IMG/VR virus record: IMGVR_UViG_2534681627_000017
Direction: 5' to 3' (one strand)
DNA length: 6,028 nt
From: a virus
Taxonomy: Duplodnaviria > Heunggongvirae > Uroviricota > Caudoviricetes
Position numbers and translations under genes: made by a program. How positions within the stretch are numbered: the stretch's first letter is position 1; each line of letters opens with the position of its first letter. Below the pieces are notes generated by a model. That model searched no databases. It was not told the DNA's origin and saw only the letters and a list, made by a program, of their open reading frames with translations. Of the stretch, positions 1-6,028 are shown one piece after another.

Positions 1-116
1 GGCAGACCTGTATGAGGCGGAATATATGCGTCACCTTCACCAATAAATTCATTAGTTCCGGCCAGCAGATTATAAATTTTTATGGTCCGTGGTTGTTCAC
101 TCATTCTGAATGCCAT
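1..116 (-). CDS. tfa: Tail fibre assembly protein Tfa, N-terminal 39 codons only; gene continues past the window start
   Basis: Minus-strand ATG at 116..114 opens a frame reading [39 protein letters not shown], which matches the lambda Tfa N-terminus as I remember it. The ATG overlaps the stf stop codon (TAATG, shared base at 116). Not in the ORF track because it is cut by the window edge. Confidence 0.8.
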
Positions 117-3100
117 TATGCAAGCCTCACAATGTAGTTAAATGCGATGTTTTTGACGGTGTTTTCCGCGTTACCAGCAGCGTTAACGGTGATGGTATGT
201 CCATGTGAACCAATCGCAACGGAGTGCGTATGAGCACCAATACCGACAGTATGTGCGTGTGCACCTGCGCTTGCAGCAGTACCCGATACAGAGTGCGTAT
301 GAGCGCCTGCAGAAGAAGTGTTAACACTGTATTTAGAATAATCAGGTGATCCACTTCCCGGAGCACCACTGGAACCACCTGAAACAAATGTCATCGAATG
401 GGTATGTGCACCGGCTGAAGCAGCCGTACCGCTAACACTATGGGTATGCGCACCAGTGTTATTCGTGGATTTAGTGCCGTAATCAAACGACGATGTGGTT
501 TTCGTCCCCAAATCAGTACTGGATGCGCTGGCGCTGTGGGTATGCGATTTTATGCCGTCCTGTTCCTGAGACAATACGGCACGACCACTGGCGGGCTTGC
601 CCTTAATCGTCCAGCCACGCATATCAGGGATCACGCCTGACGGATAAGCGGCTGCAAGTTTCGGGTAGGCAGATTTGTCAAAAGTCTGCCCCTGCATCAG
701 GGCATAACCAGACGGAACGGTATCTGATGGCCACGGGATTGGTGCGCCGACTGGGTAGCTTTCTGGTGGAAGATTTTTCGAGGTATAAACTTCTGCCCAG
801 CCTTCCTCAAAACCATAGCCATCTCTTGAGGAACGGTAGAACAGACCTCCATTTCTGTAATGCGCCTTCATCTGCAGGGTCCGGCAACTTCCGACTCCGG
901 TATAGAAGTTAACCAGAATATAGGTGTCGCCAGAGCGGGTGACATTGTAAGCGCCTGATTCGGCATTCCAGGGAACGCCACCATCCGCATCGGCATATGT
1001 ATCCGTTGCCCTTCTGGCAAAAGCAGCCACATGCGCGGCGGTTAAAGTGATATCAGTAGAACCATCAAATGGAACACCGGATATTTTTCTTGCAGTCTGA
1101 AGTTTTGTAGCAGTTGCAGCATTACCAGTGGTGTTCTGATTACCCGTAGTGTTTACACCTGGAAGGTTAATATTTGCAGAACCGTCGAAAACAACTCCAC
1201 CGATAGATCTTGCCGTCTGCAATTTCGTGGCTGTACTTGCATTACCATTCAATGAACCAGTTAATCCACCTGTAACAGACAACGGACCTGAAACTGTTCC
1301 TCCGGTTGTTGGCAGTGCTCCAATATCTAACGGCGTCGGTTTCTGATGTGTGCTATACATCGTATAAACAACACCATCGGTAACGCTGGAAGGCTTACTC
1401 GCTGAATATGTTGGCGATGTATAAATAGAAACTGTCGCATTTGCAGTACAATCCCAATGGATATTTACACGAGTCGCATAATTGCCAATCTCAACGTAAA
1501 TATCATATGTATCGCCGGATGTGTTGATCCAGGCGAAATTCGTTAATCCGACGGCTGTACGCTTCCACAAAGCCCCGGTAATTCCTTTGGGGTTTCCATT
1601 GCCTGCTCGTAGAACCAGTTCTGAAATGCCTGCCTGATGTGGGGAACCGACGTTGTAACCAGCGCCACCAATCAATGCGATGTAAACGATGGAACTCGCT
1701 TGTGGCATGGTAACCGTAGCCAGTTTGAACCACCCAGCCCCGCCAGAGAAAGACATCGTTACTGAATTTAAAGTACCAATATCTTTCGGCGTTAATGTTA
1801 TATCCGCAGTCAGTGCTTTTCCGTTAACTTTTCGGTTAGATGGCACCCTGCTATTCGCATTGTCATTGGCTGCTTTAACTGCTTTTGGCGTTGCGGCCAG
1901 CGATTCACTGATGCTATCAACAGCACTGCTAAGTTTCACAACACCTTTAGTTGTAAGGCTTGCGTCTTCCATCGCAACTGCATCGGCAATCTCTTCAGCA
2001 CGATCAGCAGCAGCTTCCGCACGGGTCGCAGCGGATTCAGCAGCAGTTTTGCTCTGAGATGCTGCCGTCGCACTGCCTGCCGCCTCTGTTGCTTTCGTGG
2101 ATGCCGTCGTGGCGCTGCCCTTCGCTGCTGACGCCTGTCTGGTCGCCTCATCTTTTGAAGCAGACGCAGATGATGCCGATGACGCTGCCGAACTGGCGGA
2201 CGATGCGGCTGCCGTTTTTGAGGATTCTGCACGGGTTTCCGACGCTTTCGCATTCGTTTCGGATGTCTTCGCTGCGGAAGCAGACCTCGCTGCTGCGCTG
2301 GCCTGTACAGCGGCTTCGCCAGCCTTCGTTGTGGCTGTTGAAGCGGACGATGCAGCACTTTCTGCCGATTTTCCGGCGGCGGTGGCACTGGCTGAGGCCT
2401 GCCCGGCACTTGTTGACGCGGCACTGGCAGACGACGCAGCCGCTGTTTTTGAGCCTGCCGCAGCTGAGGCACTCTGTCCCGCTGCCGTTTCAGAAGCCTT
2501 GGCGTTCGTCTCGGACGTTTTTGCCGCCTTCGCAGAATTTGCTGTCGCCGTTGCCGAGGAAGCTGCGCTGCTGGCGCTCGAGGCTGCGCTCGTTTCTGAT
2601 GATTTTGCCGCCTCTTTTGAAGCCGACGCATCCCGGGCTGAGGTGGCAGCTTCTGACGCTTTCGTGGTCGCGGTGGATGCTGAAGTGGCTGCTGATTGTT
2701 GTGACGCTGCCGCATTCGTTTCTGACGTTTTTGCCGCAGCGGCACTGGTGGCCGCCGCGCTTTTTGAGGACTCTGCAGCGGCAGCACTTTTTGATGCTTC
2801 AGTGGCCTTTGCTGATGCCGTTCCTGCGCTGGAAGACGCTGACTGAGCCGACGAAGCGGCCTGTCCGGCTGACGTGCTGGCTGCGCGTGCTGAGCCTGCA
2901 GCATCAGTCGCATGGGTTGCCGCCTCACGTGCTGATGTGCCGGCATCGCTGGCTGACTTCTTCGCGGCTGCCGTGTTCTGTGCCACCGCGGACGCGTTAC
3001 GCGCCACCTCTTCCACCATCAGTTCAAAACGGCGCAGTGCCTCAGGACGGGCATCATCCTCCGTCATGGCACCGAGAAAATCATTCAGCGTACCGGGTCG

Positions 3101-3343
3101 GGAATCTTCATACACGGTGATGGTCCCGGCATGTGACGGCGGGAATCCCTCCACCAACAGAATAACGCTGTACTGACCGTACTCAACGTCCATGCTGTAA
3201 CGCCCGGCTTCATCCGGATTTTCTGAGGCCAGCGTGTTCACCACCACCGTGGTGCTGTTACGTTTTGCTTTCAGCTGGATTGTGCAGTTCTGTACCGGTT
3301 TTCCTGTGCCGTCTTTCAGTACACCTGAAATCTTTACTGCCAT
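116..3343 (-). CDS. stf: Side tail fibre protein Stf, long mosaic variant (~1075 aa)
   Basis: ORF track 116..3349 (1077 aa from a GTG). I place the start at the ATG at 3343..3341 because the product then begins [26 protein letters not shown], as in lambda Stf, and a GGGG run sits 5 nt upstream, whereas the GTG has no spacing to it. The C-terminus ([40 protein letters not shown], HxH repeats, ending [22 protein letters not shown]) is the T4 gp37-like tip of lambda-family Stf. Two [12 protein letters not shown] phage tail-fibre repeat units lie at aa 706-770. Confidence 0.9.
197..553 (-). repeat. Coding array of seven His-x-His motifs in the Stf C-terminal tip
   Basis: Translation contains SHTHS, AHTHS (x4), AHAHT and SHGHT, separated by Gly/Ser/Ala/Thr-rich spacers; the unit GTAASAGAH(T/A)H recurs. 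Matching imperfect DNA repeats (gtgcgtatgagc / gtatgtgcacc) are visible on the + strand. Confidence 0.7.
1970..3001 (-). repeat. Ala/Ser/Thr-rich low-complexity repetitive shaft region of Stf (aa ~117-460)
   Basis: About 340 residues composed almost entirely of A, S, T, K, E, Q and G. The motif AAKTSETNA occurs three times (aa 205, 275, 359; nt 2737..2711, 2527..2501, 2275..2249), with ~20-bp imperfect DNA repeats on the + strand at about 2712-2734, 2505-2526 and 2258-2280. Confidence 0.75.
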
Positions 3344-3407: not shown

Positions 3408-4007
3408 TCAGAATTTATAACCGACACCCACGATGAAACCGTCAGTGCGCCAGTCACCACTGCCGGAGCCTTCATAAGCAATATCAATGGCCACGGATTC
3501 GGTCGGGTTAAACTGCACGCCAGCCCCCCACGCCAGAGACGTGTTGCTGTGGCGACCGTCATCACTTCCGGTCAGCACATCGTGCTTTTTCCCCTTGTTG
3601 TCAGTTACGCGGAGATAATCCCCGGAGAAAGTCGACACGCGGCTGTAAGCCACACCCGCCATCGCATACGCGCTGAACCATTCATTCACGCGCACAGACG
3701 GCCCCGCCATTACGCTGAACCAGCGGTTACGAACGGAATCTTCATGCCAGCGGGTATCGCTGTAACGGGTCAGCTGGCGATTCTTGTCTCCTGCATAGCT
3801 GAATGACGTCACCAGCCCCAGTGTGTCCGTAAACTCATAACGGTATTTCACGTTAATCCCGTTCAGATCATCGCTGCCGGGGACGTTCGTCGAGGCATGA
3901 AGATAGCCCGCGCTCAGCGTGGACTGATGTTCAGACGCCCATGCAGGCGCACCGGATACGGCCAGACAAATGGCTGCGGACAAAATGGCGGCATAAAGTT
4001 TACGCAT
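3408..4007 (-). CDS. lom: Outer-membrane protein Lom (Ail/Lom/OmpX/PagC family beta-barrel)
   Basis: 199-aa ORF with a typical signal peptide (MRKLYAAILSAAICLAVSGAPAWA | SEHQ) and a C-terminal aromatic residue (..GVGYKF) as expected for an outer-membrane beta-barrel. The sequence is near-identical to lambda Lom as I remember it. A GAGAGGT Shine-Dalgarno sits 5 nt upstream of the ATG at 4007. Confidence 0.9.
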   Translation of the reverse strand: MRKLYAAILSAAICLAVSGAPAWASEHQSTLSAGYLHASTNVPGSDDLNGINVKYRYEFTDTLGLVTSFSYAGDKNRQLTRYSDTRWHEDSVRNRWFSVMAGPSVRVNEWFSAYAMAGVAYSRVSTFSGDYLRVTDNKGKKHDVLTGSDDGRHSNTSLAWGAGVQFNPTESVAIDIAYEGSGSGDWRTDGFIVGVGYKF

Positions 4008-4031
4008 AATTACCTCTCGCTTTTCTGCAAT

Positions 4032-4055
4032 AAAAAAGGCGTCATTCCTGACGCC
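4032..4055 (-). terminator. Putative rho-independent terminator or attenuator hairpin just upstream of lom
   Basis: Perfect 7-bp inverted repeat ggcgtca / tgacgcc (+ 4038-4044 and 4049-4055) with a 4-nt loop, followed on the minus strand by TTTTTTA (+ 4032-4037 is A6). The + strand has a weaker T-rich tail (cTTTaTT), so it may act in both directions. Confidence 0.5.
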
Positions 4056-4077
4056 CTTTATTGGGGTTATAAATATT

Positions 4078-4273
4078 TCAACGAATACTGATGCCGGAAG
4101 CGGCTTTTTTCATCACCACAACCAGCAGAGTCGCTGATACTGGTTGTTGGTGTCCCCTGATTGCCTTTCTGGAAAATACGTTAAACTCCAGTGTCAGCTT
4201 CCCCTGCCACTCGGCATATCAATAACTGCACTGTAACTACCGGGAATGGCCCCTTTAGTTTCTCTGGATGCGA
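4078..4273 (-). pseudogene. Out-of-frame remnant of the J 3' end (J-like C-terminal coding sequence continuing in two shifted frames)
   Basis: Downstream of the J stop at 4274, minus-strand coordinate frame 2 (open 4337..4197) reads ..[37 protein letters not shown], and coordinate frame 0 (open 4218..4081, stop 4080..4078) reads ..QGKLTLEFNVFSRKAIRGHQQPVSATLLVVVMKKAASGISIR*. These resemble the lambda J C-terminus as I remember it (..NGAVIY..SRIVDMPAGRGNVILTFTLTS..VQVMVIKKQALGISVV*). Confidence 0.55.
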
Positions 4274-6028
4274 TTAATACGCCGTTTTTGCGAACTTCAA
4301 AACCATAACCCAGGTTGAATACCAGTATGACTGTTGGTTATTTCCGCTCCCCGGATCGTCATACGCTATACCGTTAAAAATAATGGGCGGAATAATAATC
4401 TGGCGGTCAAAGTTATGATCATCGCTGATGGTGACTGTAACCGTACCGTTTGGTGTTTCCGTGTTACCCCACGTACCGACTTTTTTCGGGAAGGCTTTTG
4501 ATACAGCTTTAACGAAATCTCCTCTGACCTGGGTCGCCTCCAGCATGCCCTTAATCGTACAGTTCTGGTTAATCGTGACATTGTTGAGCGTTCCTGAGTT
4601 CGCATTCACACTGCCACTGATATCCGCATTTTTCGCCGTCAGTCTCCCGTCTGATGTCAGGGAAAATGCCGGAGGATTACCGCCGCTGGTAATGGTGGGG
4701 GCCGTCAGGCGTTTCAGGAACACTTCATTCATGAATATCTGATCGCCCTGACCAACAAACATCGGCTTTGTGTTGCCATTCGCAGGATTAATCATCGCAA
4801 TCCTGTCTGCTGCCAGCAGCACCTGACTCTGCATGCCGTCAGGGGTGTTCTCAATACCGGCACCGATACCCGCAATATAAAGGCGTCCGTCCTGCATCTG
4901 CTGCAGCTTCACAGCCCACATGCTGTTCAGGTTATTATTTGTATCAACCTGAACCTTCTGTATCTGCTGGATCGCTGCACTCTGATCTTCCAGTTTCTTA
5001 TTAACGGTCTGTGTGATTTCATTGCTGACATCCGTTATGGACGTCCTGATTTCAGTCAGGTCAGGCGCAAGCTGACCGTTATCAATCTGCGTCCACAGCT
5101 CCTGAGCCAGATGGGTTTTCCCTATCTCGCCTTTGAAAAAATCCAGATAGCCTGATGCATCATCACTCGGCTGACCGACAGCCTCCACGAATGCCGATTT
5201 GCCAACGGTGTTCACACTGCGAACGTAAAAATAATAATCATGGCCCGGTTTGATATTGATACTGGCGGCTATCCAGTACAGCGCCGTACCAAGATAGCGC
5301 GCTGTGGTTTCAACCTGCCTGATATCCGCAATCCGCTTTTCCGAGAACCAGAACTCAAACTGTACCGTCGGATCATAAACCGCAAGATGCGGCGTGGCGG
5401 TTATCTGAAAATACCCCGGTGTCAGCTCAATCTGCGACGGCGCTGCCGGTGCGGCAATCCGGAACGATACCGATGCCGGATCGCCCTGCTGTCCCCACGC
5501 ATTTACTGCCCGGACCGTCAGCGTGTAACGCCCCAGCGCCAGTTGTGTGAAGCGGTATGTGGTTTCCGCCGTCCGGGCTGTGCTGACCAGCCGCTCACTG
5601 CCGTCATCCGCTGCCACGGTCAGGCGAAGCATAAAGCTCACCCCCTTCACCACCTTCGGCGTGTCCCAGCGGGCCAGTACCTGATATTCCCCGCTGTCTG
5701 CGGTGACTTCGGCAGTCAGGTGCTGCACCGCTGGCGGCGTGACACCATTCACCGTGCCGCTCTGGTCGCCGTCAAAGTGCGCCCCGTTATCCACGATGGC
5801 CTCTTTTTCCGGTACATGCTGCACGGCGGTGATGGCATACATACCGTCGTCGTTCTCACGGATACTCACGCAGCGGAACAGGCGCTGGCGCAGCGTCGGC
5901 AGCTTCAGCCCCCACACGCTGTATCCGGCAACGCCGTCAGGAACACGGCTCACTTTTACCTTCACGCCGTCGGTGACGGACTGGACCTCCACGCTGACCG
6001 GATTGCCACTTCCGTCAACCAGGCTTAT
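4274..6028 (-). CDS. J: Tail tip / host-specificity protein J (central tail fibre), 3' portion; 5' end beyond the window; 3' end apparently truncated by frameshift
   Basis: The frame is open from the window edge at 6028; the track ORF 4274..5992 begins at an internal GTG. The translation (..[84 protein letters not shown]..) is collinear with lambda J as I remember it. The in-frame C-terminus ends ..KFAKTAY*, roughly 64 residues earlier than the homologous sequence runs. Confidence 0.88.

Follow-up and report, generated by a model that had tools for sequence, protein, structure and literature searches.

An apparent fine-grained patchwork of two natural alleles in the frame-broken receptor-binding domain of a lambdoid prophage J gene

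The 3' end of the J gene in a draft Escherichia coli contig encodes a chimeric, frame-broken receptor-binding domain, a feature of an ordinary kind (either a prophage tail gene that is mosaic or pseudogenised, or a chimera of the draft assembly) in which the mosaic is unusually fine-grained. Judged from alignments to intact relatives, it reads as a patchwork, at the level of the DNA, in which two natural alleles of the receptor-binding domain (which we refer to as A and B) are combined, with short B tracts set into an A background. As written, J terminates 65 codons early with the loss of about two thirds of the receptor-binding domain, a loss that would leave the prophage tail tip non-functional. 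Allele A is the J of phages 434 (a close match), Kati, ev243 and mEp332 and of many E. coli prophages, and allele B is the J of E. coli M8, O157:H7 PV15-279 and O128:H27 90-9281, common in EHEC and in other E. coli prophages.

The stretch of DNA analysed (the window) is the complete 6,028-bp contig APYO01000041.1 of assembly GCA_000357325.1, and both of its ends lie in sequence repeated among lambdoid prophages. The minus strand carries the 3' 1.7 kb of a lambdoid J (tip attachment or host specificity protein; open reading frame at 4274-5992, cut by the contig end and closed by a premature stop), an intact lom for a 199 aa Ail/Lom outer-membrane beta-barrel protein (3408-4007), an intact stf side tail fibre gene of 1075 aa from its ATG (116-3343) and the first codons of tfa. 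The same strand holds the hairpin GGCGTCA-GGAA-TGACGCC followed by TTTTTTAT (4031-4056), an intrinsic-terminator-like element between J and lom, at the place equivalent to an annotated terminator in phage 434. The lambdoid tail-gene context of J, terminator, lom, stf and tfa is present, and the gene order, the hairpin and the natural J-lom spacer around it are those of phages 434 and Kati. The lom allele is common (812 blocks in the Lom protein search) and the same Lom protein adjoins an intact A-type or B-type J in all ten other loci, whilst the stf allele occurs in two contigs only of a 15-billion-protein collection. Outside the 3' end of J the three long reading frames of the 6 kb (J over an open stretch of 572 codons, lom and stf) are open, and outside the two patches described below the only indels relative to the closest complete genomes fall in a His-rich repeat block at the 3' end of stf, where they sum in frame, which argues against random sequencing error.

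The J open reading frame ends in ..KFAKTAY at the stop at 4274, exactly where the first-pass annotation had put it. As written this leaves a J-lom spacer of 266 nt, which becomes 70 nt if the stop at 4078-4080 is used, close to the ~70 bp that the annotation had anticipated; that stop is the natural end of J in intact relatives, 70 nt before lom, and the same 70 nt separate the two genes in E. coli CFSAN064035, in phages 434 and Kati and at ten further loci with this Lom. Upstream of the break the protein is unremarkable: Ig_J, Ig_J_second and Phage_Tail_Tip are all matched at full length (PF24421, 146 bits; PF24489, 138 bits; PF09327, 108 bits), and are likewise intact in lambda-family gpJ (PF12421; PDB 8xcj, 8iyk and 9wca). 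The receptor-binding domain itself (PF12421, Ig_GpJ_C) is matched over positions 1-47 of 135 with 42 bits, compared with positions 1-134 and 90 bits in the intact J of E. coli STE15, in keeping with the earlier suggestion of a J inactivated, as written, in its C-terminal receptor-binding domain. In lambda-family gpJ this domain is read in one frame, whereas in the window its DNA is recognisable throughout, yet the open reading frame covers only those 47 of 135 positions, four frame breaks intervene and the remainder of the domain is split over three frames (tblastn).

The first-pass annotation had explained the split by two 1-nt deletions, one at or near an A5 run (4285-4289) and one at a G4 run (4201-4204), arising by decay or by homopolymer miscalls. 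A BLAST search with 3980-4700 as a 721-nt query returned thousands of J genes, the best of which cover it with 708 nt at 94.5-94.9% identity, so that the window is longer than the intact alleles here, by 13 nt, and not 2 nt shorter as two deletions would have it. In the alignment, window and A do not differ at a single position of 4339-4912, 4198-4311 and 3999-4110, and the differences between them are confined to 4312-4338 and 4111-4197. Both homopolymer runs, and all 114 nt between the two patches, are the same as in intact relatives, which also keep the 70-nt spacer, and the two deletions are refuted by these alignments. The appearance of two deletions has a simple source, since the changes found are block substitutions of +5 and +8 nt, each of which equals a 1-nt deletion modulo 3, and a reading in three frames alone sees no difference. 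Another assembly (P0026) does have a homopolymer frameshift, at an A6 run at the end of J, but here the breaks are block replacements templated by a second J allele rather than slippage or a change of run length in otherwise collinear sequence. Moreover, restoring one base at each site does not recover the C-terminus of J, as it leaves 17 residues out of frame, with the peptide VFSRKAIRGHQQPVSAT, which matches no J. We consider homopolymer loss a very improbable account of this locus.

The sequence that replaces A in both patches is that of allele B, as seen in alignments with the B-type J of E. coli M8 and O157:H7 PV15-279. The exact matches between window and B comprise one of 32 nt and two of 25 nt, shared flanking bases counted, and with the core of the second patch as query, allele B was recovered at 47 of 48 positions in >1,400 complete E. 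coli genomes. A multiple alignment of A and B, whose loops differ in length, gives just ~47-53% identity over 4078-4600, and these matches are not due to chance. A further allele, 'B2' (P0074 type, L011), was considered as donor and set aside, as the patches match it less well than B. The B domain has the same sequence as the 'A8 gpJ' chimera (PDB 9wca), a construct taken from a gpJ variant that occurs naturally in E. coli and reported to use OmpC (PMC11338833); in the window, this allele is the donor of the patches, and only four short tracts of J are B.

All segments of the mosaic lie on the minus strand and are given here in the direction of J. Upstream of the first patch, 4336-4912 is pure A and 100% identical to the J of E. 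coli STE15 and APEC O2-211, and over its last 365 nt phage Kati and CFSAN064035 share this identity. Patch 1 (4311-4335) is the 25-nt B sequence AACAGTCATACTGGTATTCAACCTG, which encodes QQSYWYST and replaces 19 nt of A for a net gain of 5 nt. Its last G (4311) is common to A, which limits the B-specific part to the 24 nt of 4312-4335, and together with the shared AATAACC it makes up the 32-nt exact match to B. There follow 114 nt of pure A (4197-4310, ending ..MPSGRGS), in a frame that differs from that of the J open reading frame. Patch 2 (4111-4196) is a fine mosaic of A and B in which ~43 nt of A have become ~51 nt, a net gain of 8 nt composed of steps of -1, +2, +6 and +1. It opens with B 'TGACA' (4192-4196), which is 1 nt shorter than A and creates the TGA at 4194-4196, and continues with A (4181-4191), B 'CGT' (4178-4180, +2 nt), A (4154-4177), 23 nt of B (4131-4153), a C at 4130 that is extra relative to B and is either the A state where B has a gap or de novo, and 19 nt of B (4111-4129). 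Pure A then returns for the end of J (4078-4110, KKAASGISIR*) with the natural stop at 4078-4080. By exact-match tiling, every base comes from A or B in the order A, B, A, B, A, B, A, B (with the extra C) B, A, so that each segment is identical to one parent and parentage alternates, and the four B tracts measure 25, 5, 3 and 23+19 nt. The junctions between A and B are marked by the k-mers GCGGAAATAACCAACAGTCATACTGG, GGCAATCAGGGGACACCAACAACCAG, CAGCGACTCTGCTGG, TTCAACCTGGGTTATGGTTTTG, GGGGAAGCTGACACTGGAGTTTAACGTATTTTCC and GGTGATGAAAAAAGCCGCTTCC.

The B tracts sit in the register of the DNA alignment and not in that of the codons and, as the loops of A and B differ in length, this placement produces the insertions (+5; then -1, +2, +6 and +1) and with them four frame breaks, where two frame switches had been annotated. 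Compared with the parental proteins by tblastn, the frame path through the window runs from -1 to -3, -2, -1 and -2, with A and B peptides alternating. The frame of the J open reading frame follows A as far as GSGNN, passes into B's QQSYWYST and then into noise, and further down the same frame reads A's IFQKGNQG followed by B's TPTTSISD. The second frame, read by the annotation as J-like up to ..AVIDMPSGRGS and the TGA at 4196-4194, is indeed A-type J at 4310-4197 (tblastn E 1.7e-21). A tblastn search with the intact A-type C-terminus, of the kind that the annotation had proposed as a check, places this segment in frame -3 and the last residues of J in frame -2. Its third reading, ..VVVMKKAASGISIR* up to the stop at 4080-4078, fared less evenly: the coordinates are right and the last residues are J in frame -2, but VFSRKAIRGHQQPVSAT is not J-like and consists of allele-A and allele-B DNA read out of frame. 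Programmed frameshifting to a full-length J, already doubted in the annotation, has in its favour that J-like sequence lies in several frames, and nothing more; it would require four shifts, at points that lie inside the foreign tracts and not at conserved slippery sites, in a domain that intact relatives encode in one frame. The comparison with these relatives excludes it, and we regard it as scarcely credible.

We considered whether the patches might instead record an unsampled, functional, in-frame allele in which B-type loops were grafted onto an A scaffold, later blurred by frameshift errors. A structure model of the intact A-type C-terminus (345 residues) had a mean pLDDT of 50, with values of 52-87 over the last ~140 residues, a moderate confidence that applies to the domain region only, and we used it for secondary structure only. 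In the model, patch 1 is predicted to fall at a loop end and strand start, and patch 2 at a strand start, a loop and the last strand, and parts of both would coincide with the length-variable loops of the Ig-like domain at model residues 258-267 and 321-329. The Ig-like receptor-binding domain of lambda J inserts its bottom loops into the receptor (PMC11101478), which lends the loop graft some appeal, and one added G would bring patch 1 into frame (..STWGYGFEV..). Patch 2, however, would need at least three separate corrections, and its A segment 4154-4177 and B segment 4131-4153 are in phase with one another and out of phase with both flanks, so that no single-error history gives a sensible protein. 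Among the 120 protein-cluster representatives listed, none combines A and B motifs (QQSYWYST with the A-type 10-residue motif), a weak count since clustering at 90% identity hides rare variants. Overall we judge a loop graft with later errors to be improbable.

The chimera was looked for in other collections. Exact patterns specific to its junctions gave no match in IMG/VR, the GTDB representative genomes or the JGI metagenomes, and BLAST searches of complete E. coli genomes (5,426, with ~13,700 J copies), phage records (50,697) and plasmids (72,556) returned pure alleles only. Three draft assemblies have contigs that end in ..GGAAATAACCC, 1 nt from the patch-1 junction, and were considered as a recurrent branch point; they are explained by the base next to this sequence, which is polymorphic (A/G) between A alleles of the Kati and 434 types. 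A literature search found no papers naming GCA_000357325.1 or GCA_000358795.2.

In the 15-billion-protein collection, only one contig besides the window encodes its stf protein, and it comes from the second of these assemblies (APYR01000138.1, locus L008; hereafter the sister contig). It belongs to a neighbouring accession series and seemingly to the same submission batch. It starts in J within 26 nt of the starting point of the window, its first 230 nt are identical to the window, identity to the window resumes at 3612 and extends to 552, and the contig then runs on into chromosomal ydf-region genes. The 3' end of its J is pure B over 405 nt with A-type patches that match window positions 4215-4140, the converse of the arrangement in the window. 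At several sites the two contigs have swapped states, and elsewhere both are A or both are B. The sister J is in frame overall, with a compensated frameshift that turns the conserved strand TLTLTFT into KRHSGIQ, and this allele is absent from the complete genomes, where the best match is 96.1%. In the upstream region of J, where the two contigs diverge by 2%, each keeps a coherent and distinct haplotype over runs of 7-10 SNPs.

How the mosaic arose is best discussed for a genome with both an A copy and a B copy, which an origin in the cell and an origin in silico require alike. We tentatively favour a chimera made in vivo, by recent and unselected homeologous exchange, over an artefact, at a confidence that falls just short of even. 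Two co-resident J genes of lambdoid prophages would have yielded the patches by homeologous recombination or template switching in the cell, with a Red-type or a RecABCD/Ruv pathway as the likely agents and with joints formed in identity blocks of 1-7 nt; the exchange would have been recent and free of selection, in a prophage already defective or made so by the exchange itself. Some of the evidence weighs towards an origin in the cell. The junctions of A and B share only 1-7 nt, and a k-mer or overlap assembler would need far more to change paths, such that the chimeric k-mers would be expected in the reads themselves. The coherent SNP haplotypes in the flanking part of J indicate that the assembler was not blending copies there, and the converse mosaic of the sister contig agrees with an A copy and a B copy having exchanged sequence. 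A more specific version is somewhat more doubtful, namely a micro-scale and partly reciprocal exchange of 3-25-nt tracts between ~50%-identical domains, of which the window would be an unselected, out-of-frame intermediate and the sister contig the compensated-frameshift product.

Experiments with lambda show that exchange of this general type occurs. Red and RecABCD recombine genes that are 22% diverged, the joints fall in identity blocks down to 2 bp, complex multi-joint products make up 2-5%, and symmetrical (reciprocal) products are resolved by Ruv (PMC2327257); relaxed recombination is likewise described for Rad52-like phage recombinases (PMC3945230). The hybrids of Martinsohn, Radman and Petit 2008 (PMC2327257) resemble our reading of the window in the exchange between diverged genes, the joints of a few bp and the complex and symmetrical products, and differ from it in that their genes were 4-22% diverged and viable products were selected, whereas the window would involve ~50% divergence, tracts of 3-25 nt and an out-of-frame outcome.

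Exchange through ~50% identity is expected to be very rare, and several observations sit uneasily with an origin in the cell. The chimera is unique in all the collections searched, the only comparable case (the sister contig) seemingly comes from the same batch and could equally mean a pipeline effect, a short contig with repeats at both ends is the classic setting of misassembly, and the tracts of 3 and 5 nt and the lone A-state base in a B tract (the C at 4130) resemble column-wise consensus calls. The same features are what an artefact would leave if a consensus, bubble-merging, gap-closing or polishing step had mixed the reads of paralogous J genes column by column in a genome that holds intact A and B copies. 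Such a step would also account for the absence of any mosaic base foreign to both A and B, and the converse mosaic of the sister draft contig, which carries the same rare stf, is likewise unique and garbles a conserved beta-strand. We regard this artefact as a real but rather doubtful possibility. Chimeras of paralogous prophage genes that arise by consensus usually depend on shared k-mers or on <~10% divergence; the window resembles the chimeras of draft short-read consensus in its short, repeat-bounded contig, its uniqueness and its two-parent mosaic in alignment register, and differs from them in offering neither shared k-mers nor so low a divergence. Identity blocks at the junctions reach at most 7 nt in a region that is ~50% identical, which should keep an assembler of the graph or overlap type from joining or co-aligning the two copies. 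The clean 25-nt B block of patch 1 is flanked by pure A, 260 nt on one side and 114 nt on the other, from which B is equally divergent, a pattern hard to obtain from a mixed pile-up, and the adjoining SNPs at 2% divergence are phased coherently.

For annotation, the J of the window should be listed as a pseudogene or carry a flag for possible chimeric assembly, and a two-base 'repair' is inadvisable because the repaired protein would keep nonsense in its receptor-binding domain. If the mosaic is an artefact, it serves as a warning that draft contigs can carry chimeras of paralogues even at ~50% divergence between copies. If it is real, it would exemplify in nature how co-resident prophages exchange very short homeologous tracts of their host-range determinants, here with a dead product, and would represent a natural 'gene shuffling' of host-range loops and strands. 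Homeologous exchange has been proposed from lambda experiments as a driver of phage mosaicism, and could yield new receptor specificities.

The end of J in the window includes an A6 run (4105-4110), and in another assembly the same run carries a 1-nt frameshift in P0026, a J protein of allele A (the type of phages 434 and Kati) known from an ENA record, whose tail reads ..VTKKLLPASVFVEIF... Homopolymer frameshifts at the J end do occur in other assemblies, but are absent from the window. The contigs of three unrelated draft assemblies (L025, L026 and L027; two E. coli and one Shigella sonnei) terminate exactly at ..GGAAATAACCC, 1 nt beyond the junction of the first allele-B patch in the window's J (4335/4336). 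The following base is polymorphic between A-type copies, being A in the Kati type and G in the 434 type, and this difference between co-resident A-type copies is the likely cause of the contig ends.

A-type patches lie within the B-type J end of the sister draft contig (L008, APYR01000138.1) at 1828-1882, corresponding to window ~4215-4140. In this J a conserved strand, TLTLTFT, is converted to KRHSGIQ by a compensated +1/-1 frameshift, and the loop TPTT is replaced by AGN. Like the window allele, the sister-contig J allele was found in none of the complete genomes.

At the 5' end of lom (window 3987-3998, L008 2024-2035) four sites are like those of the B-type strains M8 and PV15-279 in the window, whose J is A-type, and Kati-like in the sister contig, whose J is B-type. 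CFSAN064035, an E. coli with an A-type J, nevertheless shares the window's state at these lom sites, so lom and J alleles are only loosely linked. Upstream in J, with the reference haplotypes serving as imperfect proxies, the isolated SNPs 5492 and 4913 show the B-linked haplotype state (strain 90-9281) in the window and the A-linked state in the sister contig, in both cases opposite to the flanking runs.

The side tail fibre gene stf (window 116-3343) encodes a 1075-aa allele, WP_071597308.1, which a collection of 15 billion proteins contains from no more than two contigs. The long middle part of this allele is rich in Ala, Ser and Thr and gives rise to long spurious open reading frames in other frames and on the plus strand, such as 1936-2946, 1960-3120 and 2097-2846. 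The His-rich GAHTHS repeats at the 3' end (~280-436) are substitution-dense relative to the closest complete genomes, STE15 and APEC O2-211, and differ from them by indels (-62, +9 and +2 nt) that sum to -51 nt and so preserve the frame. Window and sister contig do not differ across this block, which therefore seems to be another allele of the repeat array and not an error.

The J allele that donated the patches in the window, allele B (L006 1035-1577), is widespread in E. coli prophages. A structure exists for its receptor-binding domain, since the solved 'A8 gpJ 713' chain (PDB 9wca/9wcb) shares the sequence of that domain.
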